DNA of 60,584 nt, counting the filler, from Platydemus manokwari (lineage: Eukaryota): assembly GCA_037951405.1 (NCBI GenBank). It is 5 parts of 5 records of this genome, joined end to end, with 100 filler letters (N's around TTAATTAATTAA, not from the genome) between each part and the next. Parts side by side here need not be neighbours in the genome. Positions count along the whole stretch, not along the records: positions 30,302 to 39,362 come from JBBMOY011305650.1; 4 more parts are not named here. One strand, given 5' to 3'. Below are positions 1 through 58,570 of the stretch, one piece after another. A model generated the notes under the pieces. The model saw only the letters and a list, made by a program, of their open reading frames with translations, had not been told where the DNA came from and searched no databases. The translations under genes and the position numbers were made by a program. Within the stretch, counting starts at the first letter, position 1, and each line of letters begins with the position of its first letter.

Positions 1-70
<70 letters not shown>
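1..70. repeat. (ATA)n microsatellite
   Basis: Perfect ata repeat from base 1 to about 70. Confidence 0.98.
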
Positions 71-71
<1 letters not shown>

Positions 72-489
72 TAGTAAATTATTGCTAATTATAATAACTG
101 GTGTCCATACCAGAGTTTTTCAATTTCTAACCCCATTTAAAAGAGGTATCTGATCGAAAATTAATTGACGCAATTCTCACGAAAATTACACTCGATCAAT
201 CATTATTTACACCAACATTTGACATTAAATGCAATCACTATAACAATTATTCCATTAATTATTGAACATTTTCTTCAAATATCCACGTAAAAATAGTTGT
301 CGTCATCAACGATTTATTTCTCCAGATAAAATATAAAAATATCCATTGTGGGTAAAATTATTAAAATTAATTTTGTTCAACAAAAACGTAATTCAGTTCA
401 ATGTATTTTTTGTTTTAATGTATCATTTTAATTTAATGTATCATCTAATGAATTTAAAATTTTGTTTAAACTTGTGATTGATTTATAAT

Positions 490-3445: not shown

Positions 3446-4420
3446 ATGAACAACAAATCGTCGATTGATGTGCAAACTATATCTATTATTTCCTCCTTTA
3501 TTGGATCCATAGAAATATTGCTTATTGTTGGGGGTGTTTTTGGAAATATTGTCATTATTATTATCAATATCAACATGAAAATTCGTCCTTTTACCAAAGT
3601 CTTTGTCGTTTCGGAAGCAATTTGGGATAATGTTGTTTTATTGTTTCCGGGAGTTCAATTTTTTCTAAAGATTACCTATAATATAGAAATCCGTCATATT
3701 AATTCCTTTACTTGTAAATTGTTTTCCTTTGTCGGTTATTTTTCATCGGATTTATCCTCATGGATTCTCGTCGTACTGTCTTTGGAACGATTTCTCCTAA
3801 TCAAATATCCATTCAATTATCGACTGAAATCAGCAACCGGAAAGCAAGGGTTAATTATTTTGGTTTTCATTATCGGTGCTGGATTATTGAAAAATGGATA
3901 TTTTTTCATTTCATATTACGACGAAACCATTCAGATGTGTTCCCAATTTTCCCAAGTCGTCAGAATCATAATGTCGGAAATAGATTTGGTTTTCAATGTC
4001 CTTCTCCCATCGATTACAATTGTCATTTGTACTATTGGTATTCTGTATTTCGTTCTATCGAAAACGAAACGAATCATACCGAACAATATCAACCAATCGA
4101 TTGCGAATCCATTTCCGGAAATTTTAAAAATCGTTTTATCTATTTCGATATTCAATTTCATCGCCTCATTTCCGATGTCCGTTTTATCGATCTTATACAG
4201 TTATAAACCTTTATTAAGAGATAGTAATTATGCTAATGTTATTAGTTTGGTGTTGTCCAGAATGTTATACATCAGTAACAATTCTTTGAAATTTTATCTA
4301 TATTTATTTTTTTCCCGTGAATTCCGGCAACGGTTTTTCTCATACATAATGAGATTCGCCAGTGTTGTTTTGTTGATTAAAAATTTAATAGGCGGGCGAG
4401 TTTTTTATTTTTATCGATAA
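3446..4420 (+). CDS. Intronless class A (rhodopsin-like) 7TM GPCR, peptide-receptor-like orphan
   Basis: 324-aa ORF with seven hydrophobic segments: TM1 GVFGN, ECL1-TM3 FTCKLF, TM3 SSWILVVLSLERF (E/DRY equivalent), TM5 LLP, TM6 FP, TM7 NNSLKFYLY, helix 8 SREFRQ, and an N-terminal NKS sequon. Confidence 0.93.
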   Translation: MNNKSSIDVQTISIISSFIGSIEILLIVGGVFGNIVIIIININMKIRPFTKVFVVSEAIWDNVVLLFPGVQFFLKITYNIEIRHINSFTCKLFSFVGYFSSDLSSWILVVLSLERFLLIKYPFNYRLKSATGKQGLIILVFIIGAGLLKNGYFFISYYDETIQMCSQFSQVVRIIMSEIDLVFNVLLPSITIVICTIGILYFVLSKTKRIIPNNINQSIANPFPEILKIVLSISIFNFIASFPMSVLSILYSYKPLLRDSNYANVISLVLSRMLYISNNSLKFYLYLFFSREFRQRFFSYIMRFASVVLLIKNLIGGRVFYFYR

Positions 4421-4710
4421 AGGAATAATTGGTTTTATTGTCGTTATGATTATAGACGCTTTGTGAAATTATATTTCTCTTATCTTGTGCTGTTTTCTCA
4501 ACAAATACACAATTTGCAAATGTTTTTGGCTACTTTAAGTGAAATGAATTACAACTGAAGAATATATTATCGAACGCTGATGTGATAAATACCGCGTTTT
4601 GTTGTCTTGTGTATTAATAAAAATTAATTTACGAGCGTGAGAAAAAATTATATGACAAAATTCAATAATAATTTAATTAAAAATTTTAAATAAATAATTT
4701 ATATATATAT

Positions 4711-4845
4711 ATGCCTGATTAAGATTGGCCTTAAAAGCTCTCCGGAAATTTGTTTTAAAAATGTATGATAAGTTACGAAAATCGTATAAATAAATTCTTT
4801 CATTGAATTCTCAATTTTAAACGAAGTAGCTAATACTAACACTGA
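4711..4845 (+). repeat. Short dispersed repeat, copy 1 (copy 2 at 7713-7882)
   Basis: atgcctg..taagattg...tacgaaaatcg...tttaaacga.tagcta..actaa is shared with 7713-7882 in the same orientation. Confidence 0.7.
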
Positions 4846-5499
4846 ATATATTAAATAGTAAAAATGTTTGGTAAACACTTTTTTAACAATTTATTAATAA
4901 CTATTACTATATTAATTATCATTTTCTCTGATTTTGTTTTAATAAATTGTGTCCAAATATAGCAAAGGTGATACATCAGAAATTTCGGGACAAAATCAAT
5001 ATGAAGGAACCGACGATCAACTTGAGAAAGCTCTATCGTTTCTGGACAATCCAAATCAATCGAATTACCATAAAACTTACTCCGATGACGATAAATAACC
5101 AAACAGGAATATTAAGAGAAAAGAAGCTAGCTGCAAATGGATTGAAGACCCCTTATCGGAAAAATTGTCTTTTAAAATAAAATTATAATATAATTTATAA
5201 ATTATAATATAATTTCGAAAAACTTTAATTCTTAATTTTGAGTTTGTATGTATGGATTTAAACAAAAAAGGTCATTTATAGCTTATTTGGCTTAACATGA
5301 AATCCCTATCTAAATATAGCATCATTATTGTCTTATTTGATTCAATCCACTAATTCTGATTTTACGGATAATCTGACTCATGTTCTAATTCAGGCCATCT
5401 ACTGATTCAGAGTACTAAATCGATTCTGTTTGGAATTTTTGCAATGAATTAAATTATATTCTAATTTTTCTTACATTATTTATTAATAGATTTACTGAT

Positions 5500-6150
5500 A
5501 TGTAAATGTGCTGTGCATGTTTCTATAATTTTGATTTATAATAATTTGCACCTTTAATTTACCGTTGGAATCATAATTGGCACAAGAATCGGTTTTCTAC
5601 TTAATTATATTTTACAAACGGATTCATTTCTCTCTTTAATAATTCATATTTCATTCTCATAAACGTGTTTATTGGAGTTGCAATATTGATTTTGTTTATA
5701 TTTTGATTATTTCTTCTAATAATTTCTTCTACTTCACATCATGTTTACTGATATTTTATCAGCATGCCAACCGCAACAATTCAAACCTTTCTGATTTAAT
5801 TCCAAACAATCTCCTGTTGCACAATGGCTAATTTAATGCTCGATACTAATGATTGACTACTGCAAACACTTATTTAAGCTGATAGCAAAACAATTTTATC
5901 AATATTAAATGAGTAGAGCAATAAGTTGATATCCTGCTTGCAACATAGTGATTTGGTTTAGATCTTCCTGAATCGTTTGATTGCGATAGTGACGCATAAT
6001 AGCAGAAAGAATAAATTTTTAAAATATTTTACATTAAGGTGTTCCAGGAGTCATATTTATAATGGTTCATCATCGAAAAATCTCTAATTTTTTATTGATC
6101 AAATTTAAATTCAAGGTGGAAGTAATTCTGGTTGACGGCTATTTGATGGT
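5500..6150 (+). mobile_element. Decayed non-LTR (LINE) reverse transcriptase fragment
   Basis: Degenerate RT motifs in the expected order: GF (about 5588), a GV.QG-like region (about 5810), LI*AD as a YADD remnant (about 5870). Many stops. Confidence 0.4.
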
Positions 6151-6157
6151 ATCTACA

Positions 6158-6706
6158 TCAATTTACATGATAAGCATTCGATGATTTATCAATTATTTCC
6201 TCATCATCCATAAATGCAATGATTTCCTCATTGTTGTTTTTTAGATTTTCATCCACAAAAGAAGAGTACAAATCGATATGCTCCAAATCCGAATGAGCTG
6301 CAGTCGTATTGGTGAGATCAAAATCAATTGTTTTTAACGAATTCTGATCGGGTTGTATGAAGAATGAGTTTGATGGTTTTTTGGAAACCGGAACCCATCG
6401 TATTATTTTTCCGATAATCAAACATCCTTTGTCCGATATTAAAAACAAAACCACTAAACATAGAGCCATTGAATGTAATCCTATTATCAGTATGATATTT
6501 GGGTTGGAATCAATGAATGTGAAGAAGTGCTTATTGTAGGCATTGAATGATTTCTTGATATGATTTGACTGATATGCTGTTGTTGGAATCCTCACAAACC
6601 CATCCATAATTGTTAACACTCCAACAAGTTGAATGAAAAACGATATAAACAACAACACACCAAAGACGATTTGCAAAATCAACTTGCAATGTTTTGCAGT
6701 AACCAT
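6158..6706 (-). CDS. Orphan intronless membrane protein (2 TM helices, acidic C-terminal tail)
   Basis: A 182-aa ATG-initiated ORF is unlikely by chance in DNA this AT-rich. Hydrophobic segments LILQIVFGVLLFISFFIQLVGVLTIM and IILIIGLHSMALCLVVLFLI, with a D/E-rich tail. Confidence 0.65.
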   Translation of the reverse strand: MVTAKHCKLILQIVFGVLLFISFFIQLVGVLTIMDGFVRIPTTAYQSNHIKKSFNAYNKHFFTFIDSNPNIILIIGLHSMALCLVVLFLISDKGCLIIGKIIRWVPVSKKPSNSFFIQPDQNSLKTIDFDLTNTTAAHSDLEHIDLYSSFVDENLKNNNEEIIAFMDDEEIIDKSSNAYHVN

Positions 6707-8008: not shown

Positions 8009-9182
8009 TTAGATTGTTGCATAAGTTACCTCTGTTACGTGAAACTATTTGTTCTTCAAAGACTTTTTGATGTTTGGCAAAGTGTTATATGCCATTAGAA
8101 ATCCCGTGCTATGTTCTACAAGATTAAAGTAATCGTTTTTGCCTATATTATTTTATGTCTTATTAAATCGCATTTTCAACATCTCGTTCTTTTCGCCTTT
8201 AATCGAGGTCAAAAAGCGAGTGAAGCTGCCAGAAATATTTGTGCCGTGCCCGGAGAAGATGATATTGCTGAGAGAACCTCAAAGACGTTCTTCGTTCCGG
8301 TAGACCAATCGGGATAGACGAAGATCAACTCGGGAATCTTTTGAAGGAAGATAGCCACCAGATATTCAGAGAATTGAGCGAAAAGATTTGTTGTGATTTT
8401 GTGACAATTTCACGCCACCTTCAGTTGATGGGTTTCACGTAAAAGCTCGGATTTTGGGTCTCGCATAAACTATTCAAAAACGAAATTTCGCTTGACACTA
8501 AGGAACCCATGGCCACAGGCAACGTTACTTATACAGAATCGTCATTGGAGACGAGAAGTGGTGTCACTATGTGAATATGAAGCAAAAGAAAGTGTTGGTG
8601 AGTACTGGAGAGAAGCCAAAACCCAAGATCAAGAAAGACGTGCACCCTATGAAGACAATAACTTGAGCATGGTGGAATTAGGAAGATATGATCCACTGGA
8701 AAATGCTTGGAAAAAACATGACAGTAGAGAAGAATCTCTACAAAGCCCAATTGCATCAAGTCAATGAGACAATTTAACAAAAAAAGACCGGATTGACAAG
8801 GCCTAGTGATCTTCCCTAATGACAATTTTCCACCGTACAACGCAAAAAATGTCAGGATGGCACTCCAAGATCTCGGTTGAGAGGTCCTTCAACATCCTCC
8901 CTATTCCCCAGACTTCGCTCCGATGGATTACTGCTTTTCAAATTAAATGAGGGGTCTTAACTTCGAAAACCAGGTTCATCTTTAGAATTGGCTCAACAAC
9001 TTCTTCGAGGCTGGACCTAAGGATTTCTATCGAAATGGAATCAATAAACCGGTGACAAGATGGGAAGAAGTAGTAAAGAATGAAGGTGAGTACATAATTG
9101 AGTGAATTGTTATTATTTTTGTTGTTAAAATTCTTTGAAAATCAATGTTTAAAAAACTGTGGTAACTTATGCAACAACCCAA
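8009..9182 (+). mobile_element. Mariner (Tc1/mariner, D,D34D) transposon, full length, defective transposase
   Basis: TIRs ttagattgttgcataagttacc (8009-8030) and ggtaacttatgcaacaacccaa (9161-9182), each flanked by TA. Transposase motifs KASEAARNIC, IVIGDEKW and HPPYSPDFAPMDY are broken by stops and frameshifts. The TIR resembles the cecropia-subfamily type. Confidence 0.95.
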
Positions 9183-9899
9183 TAAATATGCTCTATCATT
9201 ACCAATGGTTTGTTATTTTGTAATTCATGAAGTGAGATGCAATCACTTATCTTATTATTCCAGATTTCATCGTCAAACACCAATGATATTCCTTGCATTT
9301 TACGAAACTTCTCAACAAAATATAATAATCTATAAAATACAACCAGCCTTCAACGATATCTAAAAACAGCAAATGATGTAAGACGACAACGGTAACTAAA
9401 GTAGGCATGTGCTATAATTTTTACCGGCTACAATTATACTAGAAAGATCCAATTGAGTGTTTTTCAAATGCTGTTAAACAAGAATTTTATCTAAGTTTAA
9501 TTTTAATTTTATTATCGGCAAAAATCGAAGTTATTTATCATCAAATAAAATGAAAATACAATTGCAACCAATGATTATTAATTTAGAAATCTCTGCTACC
9601 GACATTTTATCAATAGCTAGTTTTTATAAAATGAAATTTAAACCCATATTTAGTTTTTTAATCTGAATACCATAGATTATCATTTTAAAAATCTTTTAGA
9701 ACTGGACCAATAATATTTTGTTGTAAATAGCAGTTTTTAAAAGAATATTTTTTGTTTTCTTTTTGGGATAATCGGCTTAAACACAAAATTCAAAAGACCA
9801 TGCTGCTTAAAAACTAATAAATATTTAAGTAAATCCATCAAATATTTTATAAATTTATTTATCTGCTTTATATTCTTGGTTTTAAAGGTCTATTCCAAT

Positions 9900-12101: not shown

Positions 12102-12201
12102 NNNNNNNNNNNNNNNNNNNNNNNNNNNNNNNNNNNNNNNNNNNNTTAATTAATTAANNNNNNNNNNNNNNNNNNNNNNNNNNNNNNNNNNNNNNNNNNN
12201 N
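12102..12201. other. Assembly spacer N44-TTAATTAATTAA-N44
   Basis: 100-nt gap with a central 12-mer that has stops in all six frames; identical at four positions. Confidence 0.97.
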
Positions 12202-17616: not shown

Positions 17617-20600
17617 CTATAGAAGCAACGACACATTTCTCTATTATAGTTTAATATTATTGTATAATAAATAATCTAATTTAATCGATAATTATAAACA
17701 ATAAACAAATTCAACAAATCTATAAGTTATAAGAATTTTAGAAAAACTATAACTTACGGCAGATTGAATTATATCAAACATCGTATTTTTGAGTTCAGAA
17801 TTGTTCAAGGAAAAAGCACTTTTCATCAAATCATGCAAATTTTTATTCACATTTTCCATACTTATTAATGTTCTAGCAATCTCACACTTGAACTTTTCAA
17901 CCGCTATTTCCACTGGGGTTTTACCGTCGGAATTCGCTAAATTGACATCAAATCGTTCCGATTTTATAACGTAAATCACATCTTCTTCAGAAATCATATT
18001 GTTTCCAATAATTCTCGTGAGAAATGTTTCACCATCAATTTCAACAGAACTGGTATTGGCACATTTATTAATGAGTAATTCATATAACCTTTTATAATCA
18101 CAAGTGCTAGTGGAGCTTTTGAAATTTTCTAAACACTTTAATGCCAAATGAAGACAAATCGAAACGACTTCAACGATATCTGTTGGTTTATCAAATACAG
18201 ATAGAGCACGTTCAATCATTTTTAATCGTCCATCATCCATGCATTGCAAAAAGAAATCGAAAAGCGTTGGCCATATCTCTTTCATTATTAAAGAATCTTT
18301 TAAATATTTATCGATTGAATCAAATTGCTTGGCATTGTATAAAATCTGAAATAGTTGCAAGCGGTCTTTGGATTTTATTCTGCTTTCGTTGATACGAATA
18401 AACTCTATCGTTTGTCTTAAGAGAAATTCATTATAATTATCTGAAAAATGACTCAGATAAATTACATCGGATAAGAGCCAATAGCTTCTTCTGCAATCTG
18501 TAGAATACTGTCGTCAGAATTTCTTTTCAATAAAAGTTTTATCAGATTCTGTAAATAAAATATCCAATGTTTAGATTTTCTTTACAAAATTATTTATATT
18601 TTTATAATACGACACGAAAATATGGTTGAAACTGATATCTATCGATCCCAATTAATTTTTATTATAAATAAAAACGAAACTGTCGTGTTGATACTCACTG
18701 CGTAATAGGGCTTGGAGTTTGAATTTGTTGAAGCACATAAAATAATTCGTTTTAAAAAAGAAGTGATGAAAATTAATTATTTTAAACTAACAATCGTGAT
18801 AGAAATATATTTATACAAAAAATAAGTATTAGGTTAGTCCATGAGTTCACGTTGTTTTATTTATTTCCAATGAAATATTCCAAATTCATTCAGCTGAGTT
18901 ATCATTTCATATTAACTTTCACTTTCATTACCCTCAATAAAATGAAGTGTCACGTACATAAAAATGAACATTTCCAGCATCTTTTCCTTTTCTATTTTAG
19001 TCAACATTTAAACGCTTCAGAAGCCACTAGAATTACTTGTTGCGTTTTTGGTGAAAAGGCAGTCAGTGAAAATGCAGCATGAAAGTAGTTTTAGAAATTT
19101 AACAGTGGAAATTTTGATTTAAACGATCTATCTCAGTCAGGCCGACCTAGTAGTTTGATGAAGACTGTTTGAACCAATTGATTCACGATGACCCGCGCCA
19201 ATCGACACGAGAGCTTGGACAAGCCATGGATTTTTATCACACCACTATTTCTCGACATCTCAAGAAAATGGAAAAAGTTCAACAGCTTTTATCATAAGTA
19301 CCTAACCTTCTCAAAGAAAATCACAAAAATCAAAGTGTTTCGATTTCTGCATCTTTACTCATTCGCATTCAATATGCTGTGCAACAATGTCAATTTTCCT
19401 TTTCCGGGATCTTAACAGGCAATGAGAAATTGTGACTGTATAGAAATTTGCAACACAAAAAAGCTTGGGTGAGTCCTCAGAGGTAACGGCAACCAGGCAA
19501 AATATTGTTATTCATCACGAAATATTGCCAAAACACCAAACAATCAATGCTGAACTTCATTGTGAACCAAGAAAACGAGTAAACACAGAAATCAAAGCGT
19601 AGAGGACCAATTAGAACCAGATAATTTTACAGCATGACAATGCTCAGCCTCATGTCTTCACAATGACAAAGTTGACAATTGAAGAGTTTGGCTTGGAAGT
19701 TCTTCCCCATCGTCCATATTCGCCCACTTTAGCCCCGCAAATTTTTATCTTTCCCACTTCATGTCAAATCATCTCTCTAGTCTCTCATTTAAAAACGAAG
19801 AAGGGATAACAACCTGTATTGAAGAATTTTTCGACCGAAAATCACAAAGGTTCTTCAAACGTGGTATTGACAAACTGTCAGAACGGTGGAAGGAAGTGAT
19901 CGATTGTGGCGGAGGATATCTCACCGATTAAGACTGAGATATTTGTTTTTTCTAATGATTTCATAAATTCATTTTGTTATCTGGAATATTTTGGATGGTT
20001 TTTTTTCTTTACCAGTATGCACCAACATAATATTTACTAGAATCGATAAGGTGAATATTACTGGATATAGATTAAACATAAATTTTTATATTCCCAATTT
20101 TTTAAAATATTTGCTTTCCATTAAATTCTTCAAATTATTTTCTAAATTGAAATTTTTATTTCTTACCTTTTCATTAAATATAATTTATATTTTTTTGATA
20201 TTTTCTCTAAAACCTCTCTTCAACTTTTCTATATCTTCATTCTATTCTATAATTCCATGCCATGAACCTTCTCAGAATCGAGTACCATGTGTGGATACCA
20301 TAGTAGATGCTATTACTTTATATAACAACAGTTGTAAACGAATTGATACAGTCAGGACATTGATTATTTAATTACGAGAACAATTATTTAACCAAAATTA
20401 ATATTTTTTGACAATAATTTATAAATCCTTGAAATTTAAGTTCTTATATCCTCACAGATATAAAAACGATATATTCTTGATATTGTTTTCAAAAAACCCA
20501 TTCAAAAACGATATAATTTTTGAAATTAATTCGTCAGCAAATTAACTTGTGATCAATTTCTGGAAAAATTAAGAGTGATATGACACATTTGAAAATCTAG

Positions 20601-21289: not shown

Positions 21290-21389
21290 NNNNNNNNNNN
21301 NNNNNNNNNNNNNNNNNNNNNNNNNNNNNNNNNTTAATTAATTAANNNNNNNNNNNNNNNNNNNNNNNNNNNNNNNNNNNNNNNNNNNN
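21290..21389. other. Assembly spacer N44-TTAATTAATTAA-N44
   Basis: Same 100-nt spacer. Confidence 0.97.
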
Positions 21390-30201: not shown

Positions 30202-30301
30202 NNNNNNNNNNNNNNNNNNNNNNNNNNNNNNNNNNNNNNNNNNNNTTAATTAATTAANNNNNNNNNNNNNNNNNNNNNNNNNNNNNNNNNNNNNNNNNNN
30301 N
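30202..30301. other. Assembly spacer N44-TTAATTAATTAA-N44
   Basis: Same 100-nt spacer. Confidence 0.97.
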
Positions 30302-30499
30302 ATTGTAATATTTAATAATTAATTTTATACTTCCTTAACAAAAGCTCATTATTAAATATATACTTTAAGATTTTGGAACAAAAGATCAAGTTTCATATGT
30401 TTTTATTTGTGATATAAAATTATATCGATTCATATCTTTTTCAAGAAGTTTTCTACACTAACTTGATTGAATTTGTTAGTTCTATTTAACAATAAATAA

Positions 30500-31250
30500 A
30501 TTAGAAGTACCTTTTTATTTTGAGCATCTATTCTGCAATTCAGAATTCTATTAAAAACTATCTTATGAGAATTGTTTTAATTAAAAGGTAAAAATCAACC
30601 ATAAAGTGCGGAGAATTTTCCAATTATCCAAGATTTCTGAATAAAATATTTTTAATTATTATCTCTTAGCGTCCTAAAGAAGTAATCTTTTTAGATATAT
30701 TTAAAAAGTTTTTCGTAGCTATTAAGATTGTAAATTTGTTATATATTGAGTATCTTGATCGTAGAGGAATTATTAATATGATTTATGAGAGATTTAATGG
30801 TATTATTTTTGTCAATAATTAATTCTTGGTGATATCTGTTGATATCTGGAAATTAAATGAGGAGTTCACATTAGATTTATAATCAACATATTGCACAAAA
30901 TTTATATGATTTCTATTAAATTATTGTTGATGAGAATATCATCAATACACAATTAACAAAATCTTGATTAAATGATATTAATGTACAAAATAGAATATAA
31001 TGCATATTTGTATTGAACCAAAATTTACTTAAAATGGAATTAAGTAGAGAACAGGTCGATTCGATTAAATAATTAAGAAACCGTATTTCAACTCAATTTT
31101 TGAATTATCAATATGAAAAACAGCAAAATATTAGCGTTAGAGAAATACAGAAGAAAACTGAGAAATAAAGACGGTAATTTGATCAAATTAACTTTGTAAA
31201 TGATACTTGTGTTTAAGAAAATTTTGTTATTTTATGATAAAAATGAAAAT
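30500..31250 (+). mobile_element. Decayed LINE RT fragment
   Basis: SQLSKISE (an RPISxLxxxSK-like remnant) near 30620 and a YL...NL.W-like segment near 31000-31040. Confidence 0.4.
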
Positions 31251-31757
31251 AACAATTAGAATTGAAATTTCAATAAACATATTAATTTGGAATTAATATT
31301 TGGGATACAGAAATACAACCTCACTGACCCCTCAAGTGATGGTTTTTTTAGATTTGTTATTCGTTTTTAATTTTTAACTAAATCTTCTTTACTCTACGAA
31401 GGATTTTTTACATAATTCATCAGGCAATTGAATTTTAGCAAGGTAAAGATGTTAATTTAGGGGGCATTTCGTATGTATAACCGGAGTCTTCACAATATCT
31501 TTGAATTGGAAATCTCTCAGAGATGGATCTGCAGATTTTGTAATTATTAATATTCTCTATGACTGATGATTAGACATATTTGATGTAAATTTGCTACATA
31601 ATAAAGATCTCTTTATCCATGCACATCTCCACAGTCTTTTTCGGGTTTCCTTGGTACTATATTAATAAATTGTTTGAAGTACTCACCCAACCTATCCAAC
31701 TCACCCTCCTCATCCCTATCCAACCCATCCCCGTTATCCTCATAATTCATTGTTAAT

Positions 31758-31859
31758 AGAACAACGCACATATACCCTTGTGCACTACACAACATGTATT
31801 GCATTCAGAACAACAATACACATATACCCGTGTGCAGTACACACCCATGCATTGCATAC
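31758..31859 (+). repeat. Two-copy tandem duplication of about 50 bp
   Basis: agaacaacgcacatatacccttgtgcactacacaacatgtattgcattc is followed by agaacaacaatacacatatacccgtgtgcagtacacacccatgcattgcatac. Confidence 0.85.
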
Positions 31860-32134
31860 ACTCTTGGCTATGGATAATGGCTATAGATCAAATCAAATCC
31901 AAAGAAGAGCGCGAAAGAAAGTCAATTCAGAATCAAAAAGCAAAAGGGAATATAATCCTAAAACTGTTTTGATTTGTTTGCATAACATTAGATAATAAAC
32001 AACTTATTGTGTTTGAAGCAATTTTATATTTATATTTTGATACAATTTTTATAGCAATTTTATAATTGTTCAATTTAAGTTGTGAATTTCATATGTTTTA
32101 ATATTTTTATATTTTCATGTAAAAAAAGCGAATG

Positions 32135-32905
32135 GATAAGAATTTTGGCAGATGTGGAAATAAAAATGGAATAAGATAGTATAATAAAATAAACAATAGG
32201 AGGAGAAAAATATAATAAAATAATATAATATAAGAATAGCAGTGTAATAAAATAACATAATAAAAAAATAAAATAATGGAATAATAGTGTAATAAAATAA
32301 TATAATAAAATAAGCTATAACGTAATAAGATGGAAAAAGAGGCCAAAAAAGGGAGGCCGTAAAATAACCAGAAAATAACGGCCGGGGCCTCTTAGGCACC
32401 TAAAAATAGAAACGGTGTTGCGATATAAATACCGAGCAGTGACCGACACCAAAAACTACTTAAAAGCGAAACAGAAAGTCTGGACATAGAAATAGTCACA
32501 GTCGGAATCTATCTGAATACTATTCACTACATTAGGAAGCGGAATAAAATATTGACTTCGATCATCCAGGAGTTGTGGATATTTTTTCAGATAAAAAATT
32601 ACTTTGAACGGACTAAGAATCGTTAATTTTGTTTTGGATTTATTTTTCTCATTATCATTCTAACTATTTACCTTTCGATTAGAGTTTAATTACATTTTGA
32701 CACCATTTATTTTAATAAGGTACGTATAAGAACCTATTCAACACAATCGTACAATTATTATTTTAATTATTTGATAACATCTGTCAAAATCTCTTTTCTA
32801 TTTATCGATCGCTGCTCCGTCTGCTTTCGGATTTCGTCGGCTACTTGCTTAGGTAACTAGCTGACTATTGATTTAACTTTTTTGTTGTTCACTTCAACTC
32901 GTGTT
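32135..32905. mobile_element. Second copy of the LTR-like repeat plus the downstream shared block
   Basis: Same two-part arrangement as 25450-26390. Confidence 0.5.
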
Positions 32906-32999
32906 ATTTATTTTTATTTCTAAATATATCATTGTATAACGATTGTCTTGCAACGACTTATTTCGAATTTATAAGTGTGTTAAATATCAATAATTAATA

Positions 33000-35290
33000 T
33001 CATTAGCACCCTAATATCACAACCTAAATAATAATTGAATTAGTTTTAGATTGCAACAATGCATCTGAAGAGAGACAAAATAGATGGTCGCTGCACTACA
33101 ATGTCTGATTTTTAGAGAATGAGAATTTGTTTTTACCAGATTTTTTTGAATGTGTCCTCTCGTGCGTAACTGGGTTTTATTGAAATTTTGCTAGTCTTCT
33201 GGTTTTGAATACATATTATTTCTCTACATGTGATTCGAATATAGAATCCTGAGATTTCTTTTACGCTGTCATTATAAACTTTTCTAAGTTATAGTCTCCG
33301 CTTTCTCTATCATCTATTTGTTAGTGATTGTCTTTCCAATTATGGACTTTGCTTAATAATTTAGGATTGTTAGTAATATTCGTATTCAACGAGTATAATG
33401 GTTCTTCTTCTCAAGTACAGTCCTTGCCTAATCTTAATCTCCGTTTAAAAGATGTTGGTGTTCGTGAACTTTTGCAATATGTTAGGAATTTGAGGCTTAA
33501 ACAATATTATCACCTTTCTGGTCCTGCTTATCTAATTTCATTGTATATTACGTTTTGGCTCTGATTAATCTAATTTTCTCATTACGCTTAAACCCATTCG
33601 CACGAACTCCGATTTGTTCCTAATTTACTTCTACATATATTCTTTTTTTCTGATTACCTGGCTTTGATCAAAATTTTTCGTAGCTTAGCTTATGTGTGAT
33701 TTTAGTAACCAGTTTTTTATTACTCTTCATTCTGTTTTTGGCTTTCGGGCGCTGATCTCATCTTGAATGATTTTCTTTAAGAATTGCGTAAAGATTTGTT
33801 ATTCTTATTATTAAGACTTTGATCGTATTATTGTAGTTAGTACAGATTTCTAGATTCAAATTGTTGTTTGATAACACAACAATACGTAAATATCATGATG
33901 TGCTTGTCTTCATCTTATATCTCTTGCAACAGCATTATTACTTTCATGTTACGCAACGTCACGAATGTTCATACAGAGTCTATTATCTTAAGCTTTAGGG
34001 TTTAACCTGTTTTCAGTACTCTTCCGAATGGTACTCATCTTTAGCACCACTCTTTTATCCCTTCTTTTATATTTGGCCAATAATAAATTTAGCAGAAATA
34101 TGCGCGATTTTAGAAAGCCGTTAAATGTTCGATGCGAAATTAAAAGAAACAAAATTACTCATTATACTGAACGTTTGCGTAAGTATTTACTTTTTATGTA
34201 CTTTTCGATTGTACTTGGGTGTTTTTATTGCGTTCCTTGATCACCATCACCCACTGTGATTGGTTTGCTATTAATGCTTTTCATTTATTTACTGTTTATT
34301 TTCAATTTTCTTTTTCAATTCCCATTTTTCCTCACGGTATCCTGTAAATGATTGTGTTTACTAATCGATTGCTGTGATAGAATGATTCTTTATCTGTAAA
34401 TATGTGATAACATACACAGCTTTATATTGCTAATTATTACTTATCTTCATTTGCGCAGCTACATAATTATTTTTTGTGATTATCTCTAGAATTCATAAAT
34501 AAATATCTTCATTATTTTATTTTTATCGTTAGTCAAAAAGAATAGCTAGTTTTACATTAAAGCTTTACACTTACTTATTATTTATGTATTTTTATTTATT
34601 TGGTTCATAGGGTATTTGACTAAATTTGATTTTGATTTATTTACATTATAATTTATCACATTATCGACTGAAATTTTACTTAATTTGAAATTTTATCGTT
34701 ACTCAAATTCATTAAAATTTAAAATTTACAATTATCATTATGTGTTATTTATTGACCATACATATTAAGGTGTTTTGTCGAATTTGTAAAATTATTGTTC
34801 ATTCTTTTTTTACATTAATATGATATGTTCCTTGTACTTCTTCGGTATCACAATCAATTCTGTTCCATTGTCTTTTTTGCTGTTGTTTACTGTGGTTGTA
34901 AAAAAAACTTTTGGATCAGATTTGATAATCTGACATCTCTCACTGTTCTTCTGAAATCTCTTCCTGTCACAATCTTTCTCAATTATTCTCAATATCCTTT
35001 GTATTTCCAGACTTTTCTTTCTTTATCTTCAATCATTCTAACACCGCTTTACGCAGTTTTATGAACATTTCCACAAAGATTACTTCCGTAGTTTGTATAG
35101 TCAGTGTTCGACGTTATACCATCAAATATAATTATGAGATTTTTAAGATTAATTAAATTTTTCATTCAAATTGAATTCTAATTTTATATAAGATCATATT
35201 TATATAAAATTAAATTTATTTGTTTAAAATTTGTATTTAAATAGATTTTTGATGTCTTGACTTTTCAGTTCGTTTCTAATGTGCAATTTT
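33000..35290 (-). mobile_element. Mosaic of decayed Gypsy-like fragments
   Basis: 35150-35240 matches the gag segment at 15655-15725. Other remnants: VIPKKYKEHII (pre-integrase-like) near 34830, IKPGNQ (RNase H end-like) near 33660, RGHIQK (zinc-knuckle-like) near 33150. Confidence 0.5.
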
Positions 35291-35403
35291 TAAAATAGAG
35301 GGTAACAATAATGATAATGTATAATAAGTCAAAGACCAATGATAATATTCAATGTATAATGATAATATATGCCAAACATTGACAATGTATACTACTATAA
35401 TAT

Positions 35404-35463
35404 AATGAGTCGAAAACCAATGATTTTAAAACCAATGAGTCGAAGACAAATGAGTCAAAGACT
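35404..35463 (+). repeat. 15-bp minisatellite, 4 copies (aatgagtcgaaaacc), in frame with the ATPase remnant
   Basis: aatgagtcgaaaacc/aatgattttaaaacc/aatgagtcgaagaca/aatgagtcaaagact translates as NESKT NDFKT NESKT NESKT. Confidence 0.85.
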
Positions 35464-36050
35464 GTTTATCAAGAGGAATATCAAATTTTATATCAGGGAT
35501 TTAAAAATGAATTATCAAAAGAAAGTATAATAAAATTATTTGAAGAACAAGACATGTTTGATAAAAATCTAACAATAAAAGAAATCTGCAGAACTATGTT
35601 CTAACGAACTTATTGAAGGTGAAGGAACTTCGTTCGCAGAAAAATGTAAAAACCCCTCCATCACTATATCAATGGAATCTAAATGTGAAAAAATTATGAA
35701 TCCCTCAGATTTAAATAAAACAAAAATGAATTTAATAATTTTTTATGATTGTGTAACTGAGAAAAATCAGGAAATTATGAGTTATTATTATACAAGAGGA
35801 GGACATAATAATTGTAATTGTATTTATCTATCTTAAAGTTGGTTTGAGCTACCAAAGAAATCTATTAGAAATAATTCAAATTTCGTTATTTTGTTTAAAT
35901 TAAATTAAATTGATACCATGATTTATTTTCCAACACTTTAGATAAAGAAGATTTTAATTTTCATGTAAATAAACAATGCAGTGAGAAATATAAATATATA
36001 GCTTTTGATAAGGATAAAGATGCAATTCTTGCATATTTGTTTACAAATTA
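35455..36050 (+). pseudogene. Polinton/adintovirus-type A32/FtsK DNA-packaging ATPase, lacking Walker A
   Basis: SKTVYQEEYQILYQGFKNELSKESIIKLFEEQD ... PSDLNKTKMNLIIFYDC (Walker B) VTEKNQEIMSYYYTRGGHNNCNCIYLS*SWFELPKKSIRNNSNFVILFK. These match the RGRH, YLSQ and IRxN motifs of A32-like ATPases. Confidence 0.85.
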
Positions 36051-36099
36051 TATATAAAATTTTAAATTAAACTTTATATGTAGAATTAATTACTTAAAA

Positions 36100-36980
36100 A
36101 TGGATAGTTCTGGTTATAACATTGTTAAAAGAATAGAATAATTAAAAATGATTGTTTCCTTAAAAACTAAGTTAAATACTGAAGCTGAAGAAAAACTACA
36201 TTCTAAAATTTTGTTAAATCAAGGTATTGTTGAATTTTCCAAGCCACTATTAGCACCAGCTGTACAAAATCAAGAAAAACAACAATTAGCAATTGAGAAA
36301 GGAAATAAAGTTATACATGATGCTTTACAAGAATTTAAAGTTCTAATTGGAGCAAAACCAGGTAATATGAGCAGTGAAAATTTTATTATAAATTCAGAAG
36401 CATTTTTTGGATGGGATGCAACAGGAAATGGTGATAATATTTTTCCAAGTTTGGAGGAAGTAGTATATAATGAAGTAATTTTTCCAAAATTAATTATTAA
36501 TGGTCATGAGTTTTTAAATATTAAATCTGGAAATGAAAATTATCTAAATTTAGCTGATGGTTCTCTTTTTAAATTAAATGAAAACTTATATAAATTAAAA
36601 CTTGGAAGAGTTGATGTAGAAAGACTAAAACATGATGGAGATTTTCCTGTTAAGGGTATAGATGAATATTTATGAGTTTTAGAGAGTGCAGGAATTCCCA
36701 GTCGACAATTTGGAAAAATTAAATATTTAACAGGTCTTAAACAAGTTAAAACCAGAATGATTGAAAATTCGATTGAAGATACTGCATCGGGAACAGGATT
36801 AAATAATTAAATGTTAATAATCCGATAGAGTTATTTTGTGAACTAAGATAATTATTAGCTGCAAAGAAAGGAGGACATAATAATGTTTATAATTCAATAA
36901 ATAGTATTTTCATAAAATTATATAATTTAGGATATATAACTAAATACTGAAAAAATAAAATATTAAAAAAAACTTTAAAA
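36100..36980 (+). pseudogene. Polinton/adintovirus accessory ORF (contains ORF 36148-36675)
   Basis: The ATG at 36100 is in frame with ORF 36148. The reading continues past stops to SGTGL and, after a frameshift, NPIELFCELR*LLAAKKGGHNNVYNSINSIFIKLYNLGYITK. This resembles the P.EL..RL.LL.AA..AG.N..NEI..I...L...G.I tail of ORFs seen beside Polinton ATPases. Confidence 0.65.
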
Positions 36981-37039
36981 TATATTTCTCTTAGAAAAAA
37001 TCTTTAATTTTAATTTTTATAAAATTAAATTGAATTTCA

Positions 37040-37600
37040 TTAGATCAAAATATTTATAAATTTAATCAAAATATTAAGATATAAGATTTATATATTATTA
37101 ATCCATCATCAACAACCGCCACTAATTTAAATAAATCAACAGATATTGTTTCTTAATCTCAACAAACTTCTAATCCTGTAGATATTTGCAAAAGTTTTTT
37201 AAGATACAATATTGAAATTGAATTAAGAAAAACAAAGGAAAATAATGTAAAGGTTGATCATAATATTACTTTAGAAAATAACTTCTTTCTAAATTTATTT
37301 AACTATATGAGATTAATATTAGGAACACATGAACATGAAAATATTGAAAGTGTTTGAGAAGTATCTAGTTCACTGAATTTTTTATTAATAGATAAAACAG
37401 ATAAAGAAACCGGAGAATTAATAGGTTGGTTAAAATTTTGCATGCCAGAATTGATTTTAAATACAGACAGTGAATTAAGTCTCTAAGAAAGATTAAATAA
37501 CGATAAACCGGTTCAAGTAAATTATTTAAATAGATTATCAAATTTTATTAATATTCCAAAATGATCATCATATACATGGCAATAAATTAATACAAATTAT
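37040..37600 (+). pseudogene. Polinton/adintovirus major capsid protein (double jelly-roll), N-terminal fragment
   Basis: INPSSTTATNLNKSTDI...VDICKSFLRY...NITLENNFFLNLFNYMRLILGTHEHENIE...GW, matching the NxF..LF.....lG..IE pattern of DJR capsid N-termini. It lies downstream of the ATPase on the same strand. Confidence 0.7.
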
Positions 37601-37649
37601 AATAATATAACAATATTTATTGATCCACGTCAAACGAGAGTTTATTAAA

Positions 37650-38600
37650 TAAGTCGATATAATGCGATAAAATAATTTAATCAGGAAGATTTTGAAAACC
37701 TAAAGAGAGTAAGAGATAGACAAGTGTTATCGATACAACAATATAAATATAATTTTGAATCCATGTTCTCAAAATTCGAAATTGTTGATTATAGTATTTG
37801 ATTTCATTCCATTTATGTGCCATTATAACGAAATATTCATAAAATCCTTTCCCTAAACTCTAAAATATCTCATTAAATCGTAAAGTCTCATGAAGTGATT
37901 GACAACACTTCCGAAAAGCTTTCAACAGAGATTACAGTTAAAAACAAGGTCACTAATATAAAACAGTTATAAATTCCAATGTTTCAAATAGTATCTTTAA
38001 TGCATCATAAAGATAACAAGTCTAGTTTTATCATTATGATGAAAATTGTTATTTTTCATGTTTTTTGAAACAAATGATATATAAAACATGTTCCGGTAAG
38101 TACTTATATATTTTAATAAATACAATTTTTGAGTTTAACAAAAAGGAATTTGCGTTTTGCTTATCTTAACAATTGCAAGAATTACTTCGTTAAAGTTATA
38201 ACAAATGTTCACTGTTTCATTTATCTATTCTCCATCACAACAACATAATAATGCTAGCTATATAATATCTAGAAACGAAATGAGAACAATGATATAATTC
38301 AAAAATATGTTTTCCAAATATTCATTACATCAATTGTTTTAATTCACAGCAAGCTGCATCACCAAATACAGACATAAGATTCATAAGATTCATCTCATCA
38401 CAAAAATCTTCTCAATATTTTTCCCATTTTAAATCTATCAATCTATAAGTTATGGATTAAATTTCACAAACCACTTTAATAATAAATATTTCTTCTGTAT
38501 ATTTTGTGGTATATTTTTTAAAATTTATTTTAATCTTTAAAAATTTATTACTCCATCTAGGACTTTATATTAAGGTTTGGCATAAAAACTATTTTTTTGA
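37650..38600 (-). mobile_element. Possible decayed hAT transposase fragment
   Basis: Minus-strand SVFGDAA, HCSH and KWNEIKY fall in the order of the hAT TDNA, CxxH and RWNS motifs. Very degenerate. Confidence 0.25.
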
Positions 38601-39362
38601 TTATTAGGTATCTTCAAAAATGAAATGATAGCAGAATCATATGAATAAATTAAACAAAGCAGTTATATATACATAATTAAGTTATAAAATCATAATATGC
38701 GCGAAAATTCATTAAAACGAAACTAGGAAATCAATTTATATTTATTAGACCGAATTCGAATATACGATGTGAGTCACTTCTATTTAATTAAATTAGTATT
38801 TAAAGCGAATCTAGAAGCTCCAAACCACAGGAAGCTCAGACAAAAACCTCAAACAAGAACAAATAAAATTTTTATATTTTTCAAATACTTGAAACTTTTT
38901 GAAAAAACCTATTTAATATATTTGATTCGATCATTTTCAGATTGACTGATTTTAAAATCGCCACACATTGTTAAAATATTTTCGAAATACATCTGAATAA
39001 ATGCATCTTAGAAACATTTCTGCTATAAATTTTGTAGAAATTGGTGAAATGATATTTCATTGAAACCAAATTTAATGGATGTTAAGAGCTGTTTTCAATA
39101 ATATTGGTGTATTTACCAGTGAGATAAAAATTTAAAATATATCAATGCTATCATTCTTTAAAAAATCGAGTATTATGCGATGCATTTGAGTGGTTCTACA
39201 CAGTTGCTCATGTTTCGACATTCGATCGATAATTAAAAATTTGTTTTTTCTAAATTAGGCTTCTTAAATCTGTAATTATAAAAAGAATTACAAAATATAT
39301 TCTCTAAGTTTTAAATAAAATTTGGCGGGTATGAACATGAACTATGAACGGGTATAAAGCAA

Positions 39363-39462
39363 NNNNNNNNNNNNNNNNNNNNNNNNNNNNNNNNNNNNNN
39401 NNNNNNTTAATTAATTAANNNNNNNNNNNNNNNNNNNNNNNNNNNNNNNNNNNNNNNNNNNN
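39363..39462. other. Assembly spacer N44-TTAATTAATTAA-N44
   Basis: Same 100-nt spacer. Confidence 0.97.
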
Positions 39463-52900: not shown

Positions 52901-53469
52901 CTATCTTCAGAATTTCGTGAGCTCTAATGGCTTTTAAAACAAAGAGCCAGTTAGAGATGATAAGCATCTAACAAGTATAATATATTAGATTAATTTTTAA
53001 TTGTTTGTGATTCATTCCAACGAAGTTATTTTTCTTCTCTTTCGGTTAGCCATAGCAAATTTAATTAGAAGGATTATATCTAGGTCTGGGTATAAGATTT
53101 TAAATGGAAATTTTAGCTGTTTTTTCTTTGGGTATTTAATATCGATATTAGTTTTTAATGAATTCATGGTTCTTTCTATGAAATTGTTCAGAAGAAAAAA
53201 ATATTAACTAATTGTCTACACAATTTCAAGATAAAACTCTTAAATCTGAAGTCCACAGCAAATAAAAAATTAATGAAAACTTTTAACTGAAACAAACTAA
53301 TAAAAATTGAACTTAATATTTTTAGTGAAAAATAAATAGATAATGTTAGAATAAAGTAATTTTTACTAAAAATAGATTTTAAAACAAAATAATATGAAAA
53401 ATGGATAATAAATTTAAATTAAACAAATAGAATTTGTTTATTTATATTAAAATTTATATTTAGTAAATA

Positions 53470-53960
53470 GTTTGCCAAATTAGGAAATATCAGGTAATTA
53501 TTGACTTGGCATTTTATGAATATCAAGCCAATGAGTGAGAATTTGCTGCTCAGTGTTGGAAATAAAATAGTATATGAAAGCATGACTGTCAATTGAAGAC
53601 TGCCATAAAAGGAGAACTACAAAAGAGAAGGATTTGCAGACAAGTATAATAATAACAGTATAATAAATTGTATCAGAGTAAAGGGCTATTGTAATAGTTA
53701 TGGCGAACACCGGTAAAACTATTAGAATAGCAAAAGTATTTAGGGATGTGGTTTTAAGGTCACTAGGAGATCCTTGACCAACACATACAATTTTGCGAAC
53801 GGACTCGATCCGCTTTTTCTTATCCATTCGACAGAACTTATTAAGGGCTCAGCAATTGTAAATAGATTTGTATATTCTAATATAAAATGTAACTTAGTGA
53901 TCAACTTATTGTTTTTGGAGTCAGATTAATAAATTATCAACTATTGTTGGACTCTACATC
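53470..53960 (-). mobile_element. Repeat copy 1 of 3, probable LINE ORF2 C-terminus
   Basis: LNKF...RIES...GQ.S and WQSSIDSHAFIYYFISNTEQQILTHWLDIHKMPSQ*. Homologous to 54990-55740 and 57955-58570. Confidence 0.6.
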
Positions 53961-54989
53961 AGGTAGACTAACAAATCAATAAAAATAAAAATTAATTTTT
54001 TATAATTTTCTTTTTAGTTATATTTTTATACAGAAATACATTTTACGATGGATGCGAAAAAAAATACATTTTTCACCAGATTATTAATATACAAGATTTA
54101 TTAATGTCGTTTCGATGATAATTGATCGTATAGGAATAAGTGTGCTTAGTTTACACCAGCCAAACGAAATCTATCGTCTTTACTATCTGAATATCGATGA
54201 ATACCAAATGATGACGCTGTTTCAATAAATCAATAACATTAACAACCAGCAGAACTCTAGTGATTAAAAACCTTATTTATTATCCAACGTTGGTTTGAGG
54301 AATTTATTTGATTCTTAGCAGATGCCATTTTTATTCAATATGCATTTGCTTTGCAAGCGATCAATTCTCAACAATAATGTACCAATGAAATAACACTTCT
54401 TTATTTAAGTTTTGTATTTACTTATCTATTAAAAGTAATAATTAAAAAATTAAAAGACTGATTACGTAAGAAAAGAAATGTAAGCAAAATCAATGCGTAA
54501 TGCAAGGCATGGAAATAAAGAAAATGGCTACGAAAATAATAAATTTATAAATTAAGGAAAACAATTATAAAAGCCGATTAAATAATTTTTTTCGAAAAAC
54601 TTAGTGGGGTAATAAATAATTATATATTATATAACAAATATATTATCATTATCACTATAATAATCATTCCTATTAATCATTATCGATACATCTTATCATT
54701 GTTATTATATATTTACAATTATACAAAATCCCCCATTCAACTACCAATAAAATTATGCAATTCGTTCCATGTCATAACAGGATCGATCGTCGTTAATAGC
54801 TGTAAATCATAATCTCTCTCTGTAATCACATCAATACTATTTATTAATTCCAGAACATGAGTAATTTTTTCAATATATCATGCATTATTTTGAAGAGCTC
54901 AGCAAATAAAAATAATAAATAAAAATGAAGCAATAAAATATAATTAACTAAAATAAATTCAAAGAATTCAATTTGGTATTTTTGAAAAT

Positions 54990-55740
54990 GAAAATAAATA
55001 AAACAAATTATTGAAAGAAAATAATTGCTAAAATAAAATTATTATCATTAAAAATAAATATTAAAATTAAATTAAATTAAAAATAAACAACAAAATTAAT
55101 TATGTAAACATTTTCGTTTGTTTATTTAAAGTAAAAATTATAAACAGTAAACAAATTTCCAAATTGAGAAATAATTGACAATTATTGACTTGGTATTTTA
55201 TAAATGTCAAGCCAATGGCAGAGAAATTGCTGCACGATGTTGGTAGCAAAACGATATTTAAAGAAATGACAGTCAGTTGAAGATTGCCATTAACTAAGAA
55301 GCAAATTTTAGAGGAATATTACAAGTGATTTTTAGGTTATTTTAATTAATTATGATAGGATATTAGCGATAGTGTTTTAAAATACCGGTAATTTGGAAAG
55401 TAATAGAGTAATATGGAAACGTTAAAGTATCTGTGATCACCGGTACCGTTTGTTTATTTCGTAACAGTATTTACGGGCGTAGTGGTAAAGTCAGGAGTAG
55501 ATCTCTGACCGGTATTTTCAATTTTGTATCAGAGCTCGATCCGATTTTTAGTGACAAACTTATTTAAGAGCTCGGTCCTTATCATTTAATCTTGTACAGC
55601 GAGAGCTCGCAAAGTGTATTAGTTAATAAATGTTAGTGATCAACTTATTTGTCTTTTGAAGCCAAATTGATAAGAGCATCATTGTGTTCTACACCAAGTA
55701 CTCCGTATAATTTTAAATCCTGTAGTACTCTAAATAACAG
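54990..55740 (-). mobile_element. Repeat copy 2 of 3, probable LINE 3' end
   Basis: attattgacttggtattttata...tcaagccaat...ttgctgca...ttgaagattgccat, plus an A/T-rich tail shared with copy 3. Confidence 0.65.
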
Positions 55741-57954
55741 CCATTCGATAATAAATCTATAATCAATGAAAATTCTTTTAATTAATAGATCACATGATGA
55801 GGAATGGGTAATTTCAAAGAATTATCATGAACCAACACAAGTTACTAATTTGCAACCGATCGGAAAAGATAGAACAAAAAAAGAATTACATTAAATCAGT
55901 AACACAAGAATTTACACAGGAACTTTAGACTAAACTAACTTCAAGTCTCAAGTGATGCCTGAGGTCTCCTGCTGTCGTCCCTTAAAATAGATTCTATCTT
56001 AAGAGCCTGAAGACATTAAATTTTAAACAATCTAATAATAAATCCTTTATATTTGTTCCTTAATCATTATTATAATCAAGATCTAATTATCATTTATCGT
56101 GCATTGATTGTAGTCAACACTAATATTTATTGCGCTTATTCTTTATTTTCTCATTTATTACTTATATATGAAAATGTCAAAATTTATAAAGACCACTCCT
56201 ATTGGAGTAAAATCAATAGTAAAATAATTATGGTATACTTGATTATAACATTTAAAAATCGCGATTTATATTTTGAACTTAAGTCACCATTTATTTATTA
56301 CAATTATATAACAAAATAATTCGAGCACATTTAGATTCTTAAATCTATCTTACAAATATTTAATCCTTTTAAACGATAACAATAGACATCGACTGTAAGA
56401 TTAGAACAGACGTTACACTTGAAAAGTTTATAACTTTTCTTTTCCAATTACACAAAATTACTAGTCTAGCACATTTGTAAAGCCATTACCGAGACTTTGA
56501 TGTATGTATAGAATTTAATATCGAGATGTCGAATTAACCAAGTAGTAGTGAACAATAAAATCTCTGATAATCTTTTATAAAAACAAAGTCTTTAAAAATA
56601 TGATTTTAAGTGTATAAGTGGATTATTATTCTCATAATCAGGAAATTGAGGAATACATCTTTATTAATTATTTTATTTTTCATCTTTCCTTTTTAATGTA
56701 AAAGTAATTAAAATAAGACAATTAATAAGGAACAGATTTAATAAGAATAAAATTAGAATTCAGTGGGGAATGATTTTGTAATAAATTATTTATAAATTTA
56801 AACAATTTTTGCACTACATTTATGAATGTCACACAAATAGTGTGATTAAAAGCAAACATTGTGAGTGCGTGGAGATCAAGAAAAATCCCACGTATGTCAA
56901 ATGAATGATGCGAGATAGTAATAAAAATCAAATCCTTTAAATTGAAATCGCATGTGACTACTACAGATCATGATCGATTGAAATGGTGGCTAAAATATAT
57001 AAATAGAAATAAGTATGAATTTATGACGAGAGTATAAGAAAACATAATCTGAATGATCATAAGCACAACAAATCCAATTCATTAATTTGTCAAAAATAAT
57101 TCTAAAAGCAAAAAGACAAGATACAAACAATTTTCATCAATTTAATAATTCAAAGTAAAATTTTCAAAGCTTTTGATCTGCATAAAAATAATTTGGGTCA
57201 TATTGTGTGTCAATTTCAAAGAGAGAAAAGTATAGAATTTCAACAACGAAGCATCAGAGACAACAATGAAAGACCTGTACTTATCTTCTCGACTCTCAGA
57301 GAATAATTTGGAGTAGAGAATAACGTATATTAATAAAATAAATAAAAAAGATACACGATAAAGAGAAATTTGTGAATATAGTGAAGCCAGAAAAATAAGA
57401 ATAAATTGAAAATTTAATGACAAAAAGGTGAAGTAAATCAGAGATTTTAAAGGAAGTGGGTGTGAGGATTTAAATTCCATATTAATAATTTTGAATAAAA
57501 AAGTTTAATAAAATATGAAAAATTTAAAAGTATCAAATTAAATGTACTTTGTGGGTTGACTTTCTTAAATTCATTTTCAATTCGTATTCAATAAAATTAC
57601 AACTGCTAACAAAGGCCAGAAAGAAAATTATATAAAATTAAAATAGATTTTTAAGTATTAACAAATAATTTTTATCGAATTTTTAATAAATAATATGAGA
57701 AAAAACATCAAGCGAAAAAAACCAGAATAAAACAATGTTAATTGTCTGAAATACTCAATGGTAAACAGTAATTAAAATGTGAATAAATCAATGGTTTAAT
57801 TTCGAACCATCACTCGAAAAGAGCGACGAATTAATTTTAAGACGTACTTGAACGTGAACAGACCAGCAAATAAAATAACTAATTAAAACAACGTAACAGA
57901 AATTAATTGACTAAAATAAATACAAAGAATTGAATTTGTTATTTTAAAAGATAA

Positions 57955-58570
57955 ATAGAAATAAATAAAACTGAAAGAAAGAAAATAATAATTGCTAAAA
58001 TAAAATTATTATTACTAAAAATAAATATTAAAATAAACAATGAAATTAATTGTTTAAACTTTTCATTTTATTTACAGTAAAAATTATAAATGGTAAATAA
58101 ATTTCCAAATTAGGTCATTATTGATTATTATTGACTTGGCATTTTATACATATCAAGCCAATAGTAGAGAATTTGCTGCACAGTGTTGCGAGTAAAATGA
58201 TACATAAAAGAACGACAATCGGTTGAAGATTGCCATTTCGAATATGGCAAATTCAAGAATTTTATCGAAACAGATTTCATTAAGGACAGTTTATTTCATT
58301 TTGTATTATTTTATATTATATAGGACATTCGAGAATAGTAATTCGGAATATCGGTAAAAAATAGAATATTTAGTGTTAAGCCAACGTAATAAAATTTACG
58401 AACGCTTGTAATTTGATTCGCACTATAATAGTACTTTAGCATGCATTAGAAAAGTCAGAAGTAGATCTTCGACCGGTATTTGCAACTTTGTATCAGGACT
58501 TGATCCGATTTTTATTGACGAAATTATTCGAGGGCTCGGAACTTGTGAATTATTATTTGTACAGAAAGCT
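57955..58570 (-). mobile_element. Repeat copy 3 of 3, probable LINE 3' end
   Basis: Same core and tail as copy 2, with in-frame stops. Confidence 0.65.

Follow-up and report, generated by a model that had tools for sequence, protein, structure and literature searches.

The closest described relatives of the locus reported here are the Polintons/Mavericks of animals, for which a cycle involving an integrase, a protein-primed polymerase, an A32 ATPase and a double-jelly-roll (DJR) capsid has been proposed (available text of PMC4028283). Table S1 of that paper lists four such elements from Schmidtea mediterranea (Polinton-1_SM, Polinton-2_SM, Polinton1_SM and Polinton2_SM), all with an ATPase and a penton and three of the four with a capsid, and planarian polintons are described as piRNA targets in the accessible part of PMC8532177. 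For vertebrates, the accessible part of PMC8097293 gives degraded fossils as 96% of Maverick loci and a gene order of atp, then pm, then pz; the Maverick relics on human chromosomes 7 and 8 look similar, as far as the available portion of PMC9683012 describes them. Orthopolintovirales insertions have been reported in Rhabditophora, with flatworms poorly represented in references, in the available sections of 10.1101/2025.04.19.649669. The available main text of PMC8502044, which treats Alpha and Beta adintoviruses, does not mention flatworms, and it distinguishes the two groups by PLA2X (Alpha), by GasderminX and Cupiennin (Beta) and by the class of PolB. The accessible parts of PMC10748475, PMC6431247 and 10.1101/2025.02.07.637071 add nothing specific, and our literature search found no paper devoted to flatworm polintoviruses. 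An earlier note on this DNA had called the lineage poorly described; as a reason for particular interest this is not supported, given the Schmidtea Polintons with a capsid, the planarian piRNA targets and the vertebrate fossils cited above. A description at the level of the family could be new; the kind of element is already known.

The window, that is, the whole stretch of 60,584 nucleotides from Platydemus manokwari that was analysed, consists of five contigs with N spacers between them (12102–12201, 21290–21389, 30202–30301 and 39363–39462, each with a central TTAATTAATTAA); its G+C content is 25–30%, and CpG depletion is absent. Parts of it are present in five sequencing runs from five studies (X1–X5), of which X1 may be the source sample. 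The locus of interest lies on a contig of 9,061 bases (30302–39362, 26% G+C), to which the genomic context was limited, the genes of the four other contigs not being counted as neighbours. Elsewhere in the window there is an intact, intronless ORF of 327 codons for a rhodopsin-type GPCR on another contig (3437–4420, plus strand; 7tm_1 E 1e-15, also Srsx/Srw), a broken mariner/Mos1-type transposase, likewise on another contig, with HTH_48 and Transposase_1 above cut-off (about 8100–9200, plus strand), and a minus-strand ORF of 273 codons (17692–18513) with ankyrin repeats slightly below the Pfam cut-off. The GPCR ORF and the transposase remnant indicate an animal genome, and the G+C content together with the absence of CpG depletion is compatible with a flatworm without being diagnostic of one. 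Two to three diverged copies of a unit (73–91%) occur at 53224–53607, 54868–55593 and 57872–58557, spaced by about 1.7 and 3 kb, and may form a local array of genes or repeats.

We propose, with a probability of about 0.87, that the three-gene remnant spanning 35455–37582 (Table 1) is the dead, internally deleted ATPase/accessory/capsid remainder of one copy of an integrated, high-copy Polinton/Maverick-type family. Six-frame translation agrees with the earlier note in placing three co-oriented pseudogenes on the plus strand here, and recovers every motif that the note had quoted. That all three genes are pseudogenes is evident from their stops, frameshifts and deletions, the total over about 2.1 kb being 11 internal stops and 3 frameshifts. 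The uninterrupted reading frames of an intact autonomous Polinton are missing, owing to stops, frameshifts and both terminal and internal deletions. For all searches described below the broken genes were translated frame piece by frame piece, with X for each stop.

Table 1. Features of the remnant and its surroundings, in positions of the window.
Feature	Position	Strand	Basis or remark
AT-rich sequence, about 70 bp	35229..35298	.	Deeply covered in X1, with loose ends at 35229 and at 35298
Mosaic made up of short local repeats, including a 15-bp tandem unit	35299..35455	.	Occupies the place of the missing ATPase 5' part
A32/FtsK-type packaging ATPase pseudogene	35455..36057	+	Homolog alignment; two frameshifts, two internal stops
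Accessory-gene pseudogene, DUF8207-like family	36100..36998 (3' end approximate)	+	C-terminal helix match
Double-jelly-roll major capsid pseudogene	37034..37582	+	One frame, five stops, profile match
Scrap similar to an rve/chromodomain integrase in its C-terminal region	38397..38537	-	Profile, iE 2e-4, 9.3 bits

All 18 significant matches of the ATPase piece at 35579–35938, among 94 candidates, carry PF04665 (Pox_A32), which bears out the A32-like assignment made earlier, and the best homolog (P0001; 71% identity, E 8e-44 in a search among 5.8 billion proteins) is itself above the Pox_A32 cut-off. Three frame pieces (35455–35589, 35591–35938 and 35914–36051) align to residues 57–250 of P0001, with 148 of the 194 aligned residues identical, while the first 56 residues of P0001, which include Walker A, are without counterpart in the window. 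Walker B and the motif following it have altered positions. A 29-row tree places the piece from the window (only 43% of the columns filled) beside P0001 as its sister (99/94), on a branch of 0.62 as against 0.045 for the intact P0001. Five of 46 near-invariant positions are changed in the window, compared with 0–2 in 16 of 17 intact homologs and 9 in the most distant one, a count that carries little weight, being partly circular, as the columns were picked from the same homologs. Searching the PDB sequences with this piece gave nothing significant. No close relative was found in IMG/VR or in the phage collection.

Upstream of the ATPase, repeated 9-mers account for 73% of the mosaic at 35299–35455, compared with no more than 62% in any of 52 control windows, and it is likely that this mosaic is a scar at a deletion junction. 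Relatives of the adjoining AT-rich sequence in X1 run on into other sequence, and this segment may be a non-coding part of the Polinton-type family itself. We also observe that the mosaic consists mostly of short copies of adjoining sequence, in which it resembles a templated insertion at a repaired break.

The middle gene extends over 36100–36807 with two stops, is frameshifted near 36807 and then enters the LLAAKKGGHNN helix, which has two more. This C-terminal helix is the only part of the gene that matches significantly: it is found in 3 of 39 fetched loci, directly downstream of their ATPase, and it matches an alignment of five ATPase-following ORFs (92%, E 6e-7). These positional homologs support the earlier view of a Polinton-type ORF ending in that helix, with the helix lying one frameshift on. 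The middle gene may be PZ or GasderminX. Its N-terminal 236 residues have no significant match in protein searches or by profile comparison (probability 1%); a word-indexed protein search with the gene retained none of 346 candidates, and atlas searches with the middle open frame and with its relative gave no usable match. A motif search in the accessible part of the PMC8502044 supplement gave no match. Two further candidates, HLH for the C-terminus (E 0.025) and INTS7 in the six-frame Pfam scan of the contig, fell under the cut-off and were rejected. A model of the accessory protein of a related locus (L024; pTM 0.40) has one significant match in BFVD, the DUF8207 protein R9XLH4 of Cotesia sesamiae Mombasa bracovirus (E 5e-8, 23% identity), and a wide structure search with the accessory protein gave generic helices alone, with Z < 7. 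Cotesia sesamiae bracovirus is entered as a Polinton carrier in Table S1 of PMC4028283.

The capsid family was found by exhaustive search of 1.84 billion proteins, in which a query of 37019–37642 has 36 matches (E 2e-24 to 9e-29), a word-indexed search having retained none of 728 candidates; a PDB sequence search with the capsid alignment found nothing significant. Seventeen of the 36 matches were scanned, and 12 of these reach the cut-off of PF21738 (double jelly roll), two are below it and three have no match. The best full-length homolog, P0041, is intact, with 448 amino acids, 40% identity and E 2e-24. The window gene covers profile positions 7–136 (37034–37432) and resumes at position 218, continuing to about 270. 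Because the profile match jumps from 136 to 218 with the frame unchanged, we conclude that about 80 codons have been deleted in-frame near 37431. The match is reliable up to about 37582; the C-terminal third is also absent, and more than half of the gene length is gone. Contigs of runs X2 and X4 have extra sequence at 37430–37432 and diverge at 37566–37582, in agreement with the deletion and the break. A weak continuation of the profile match to about 37770 was rejected as over-extension, as depth drops to about 78 past 37574 and the X2 and X4 contigs diverge at 37566 and 37582.

Scanned directly against Pfam, neither the window pieces nor the six frames of the whole contig match a viral family, Pox_A32 and DJR included, and the window pieces are assigned to Pfam via their homologs only. 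The profile comparison that the earlier note had suggested succeeds for the homologs of the ATPase and the capsid, which match PF04665 and PF21738, and fails for the window pieces themselves. Small profiles built from unrelated loci locate the capsid (8.6 bits), the accessory helix (10.3 bits) and the integrase-like scrap on the contig, whereas 20 shuffles of the window give at most 1.9 bits. Because of this control, together with the E values of the ATPase and capsid searches among billions of proteins, we conclude that the three-gene remnant is not a chance match.

The loci of relatives provide the gene neighbourhood of such elements. With an alignment of the 18 ATPases as query, at least 17 viral and at least 22 metagenome loci were obtained (39 in all), and ORFs were examined in ten. 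In five of the ten, the ORF that comes after the ATPase has the same helix motif at its end; capsid genes above the PF21738 cut-off are present in L020, L021 and L030, in the first two downstream of the ATPase and the helix-ending ORF. Both L019 and L020 contain rve/chromodomain integrases; a polymerase-like and a protease-like ORF in this pair of loci were identified by eye. All these loci are distant (their ATPases are 25–46% identical to P0001 in long matches) and hence represent the genes of a wider family rather than those of the nearest kin. In L020 a single ORF (603–1889) fuses a phospholipase A2-like domain with an rve/chromodomain integrase, and similar-looking genes are separate in L019 and L026.

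On the contig itself the only further candidate for a Polinton gene is the integrase-like scrap, which comprises 47 codons without the catalytic core, lies 815 nt past the capsid break and could derive from another integrase-bearing element. The other hallmarks that had been suggested for inspection were not found on the contig. There is no protein-primed family B polymerase by Pfam scan or with a profile from a single fragment that by eye looked polymerase-like (best iE 0.98), nor any penton or adenain-like protease with profiles of five penton-like ORFs and one protease-like ORF labelled by eye and position, the copy being truncated in each case; a PLA2X profile has no match on the contig, and the two flanks yield no convincing pair of terminal inverted repeats (best 20 bp, E 0.03), a further search also showing none for this element. 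The description of the locus as a morphogenetic module goes too far: the ATPase and capsid are two of the four morphogenetic genes, both of them truncated, and penton and protease were not found on the contig. Upstream, at about 33300–34150 on the minus strand, there is an A-rich remnant, with a summed depth of 11,400 in X1 for the bin 33635–33937 and no Pfam match in the six-frame scan. By eye it resembles the terminal part of a LINE reverse transcriptase.

The lack of any trace of a polymerase on the contig would also be expected of a non-autonomous or split Polinton, in which a capsid/ATPase/integrase half is amplified without the polymerase and copied by a partner element. Consistent with this, the parts of high depth in X1 that match the element are the virion genes and the integrase scrap, pieces of which occur in X2–X4 as well. 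However, the copy breaks inside genes at both ends, so that the missing polymerase is uninformative, and we regard a split element as improbable.

Fold comparison bears on a different alternative, that the fragment belongs to another lineage of Bamfordvirae (a Polinton-like virus, virophage or giant virus) and not to an animal Polinton. A model of P0041 (15-row alignment, pLDDT 80.5, pTM 0.82) matches the capsids of iridovirus, mavirus, PBCV-1 and Sputnik (E 3e-14 to 6e-12, structure search; 3e-14 to 1e-12 for the first three), and in BFVD it matches viral capsids that include Adintovirus and MELD virus entries. The top fold matches are iridovirus, pithovirus and chlorovirus capsids, and A32 ATPases and DJR capsids are common to the whole kingdom. 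These fold matches, however, are just 8–13% identical, whereas the sequence homologs at 27–61% identity are PF21738 proteins of 408–460 amino acids or fragments of such; moreover, the IMG/VR ATPases are only 25–33% identical in long matches, and the accessory family matches a DUF8207 protein of a Polinton-bearing bracovirus. A lineage outside the animal Polintons is for these reasons very improbable. That the third gene encodes a capsid-like protein, as first suggested, is confirmed in the form of a double-jelly-roll capsid by its PF21738 homologs and by the fold of the P0041 model, and homologs, fold matches and gene order together support a Polinton/Maverick/adintovirus-type identity for all three genes.

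The sequencing runs provide an indication of abundance. In X1 the flanks are represented by contigs with 0–1 differences at a depth of about 12, as is a piece inside the module (36626–36733, depth 11.8). Relatives at ≥80% reach summed depths of 13,000–80,000 over 35150–37573, across thousands of short divergent contigs, and among 10,130 contigs placed, 3,684 are less than 90% alike and 3,817 are 90–95% alike, and their internal skips are many and varied. Such a sum of depths does not give the number of copies, for which rough bounds are 35 to 6,700, and overlap of short contigs can inflate the sum up to 31-fold. Among the contigs listed, none bridges either module junction. In runs X2–X4 parts of the module are present, but long stretches of the flanks are not. 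These data suggest that the module belongs to a large high-copy family of diverged copies, and the very high depth of related sequence in X1 supports the earlier expectation of relatives elsewhere in the genome. The pieces in X2–X5 were not taken as a sign of horizontal transfer, as trace host DNA in other samples would likewise assemble only high-copy repeats. It is extremely unlikely that a free replicating virus population, of which the window holds one integrated fossil, produces this depth, notwithstanding the ~1,000–6,700-fold excess over the flanks if depth is summed directly and the intact ATPase homolog on a short branch in public assemblies, since this depth is made up of thousands of contigs that are short and divergent, as expected of many decayed genomic copies, and may be inflated by their overlap.

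We therefore return to a decayed copy of an integrated family. In this model the linear DNA of the parent element would have been inserted by an rve integrase and copied by a protein-primed polymerase, and its A32 ATPase would have pumped DNA into a double-jelly-roll capsid. This full gene set is attributed to the parent, the polymerase, penton, protease and terminal repeats not being found on the contig. The present copy has lost both ends in addition to the Walker A part of the ATPase and most of the capsid gene. As Walker A is absent, more than half of the capsid is gone and all three frames are broken, this copy is unable to produce the three proteins, and its long branch and its stops make it likely that it decays as neutral DNA.

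The fragment marks a previously unnamed, apparently very abundant Polinton family, whose close ATPase and capsid relatives in public assemblies are likewise unnamed. The host is a reasonable place to describe Polinton diversity, and a dead copy reveals no new mechanism. The family would be more important if its polymerase and capsid proved to lie in separate halves, or if distant hosts shared it at high identity. We consider it unlikely that this is a recently active, very high-copy polintovirus family from an unsampled animal lineage, with virion genes and integrase apart from the polymerase and with close relatives in several other organisms.

Compared with the animal Polintons/Mavericks (PMC4028283, PMC8502044), the fragment is alike in its A32/FtsK ATPase, its PF21738 DJR capsid, its intronless, close-packed genes and the integrase-like scrap nearby, but unlike them it is broken and only 2.1 kb long, with no polymerase, penton, protease, terminal repeats or target duplication found. 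Its capsid directly follows the accessory gene, whereas in the relatives' loci there are genes between them or the capsid lies further on. R9XLH4 is the sole significant structural match of the accessory-gene family, although that match was made with the L024 relative and the window gene is tied to the family by its C-terminal helix alone. The four Polintons of Schmidtea mediterranea, compared by description, are alike in their listed ATPase and, in three of the four, capsid genes, and are elements of the kind that the earlier note had proposed. In intact vertebrate Mavericks, as far as the available sources describe them, the ATPase module is on the opposite strand to the integrase and capsid, whereas in the fragment the capsid is on the strand of the ATPase and the integrase scrap on the other. 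Vertebrate Maverick fossils resemble the fragment in their stops, frameshifts, lost terminal repeats and surviving pieces of ATPase, PZ and capsid, and differ from it in that the fragment's family appears to be high-copy.
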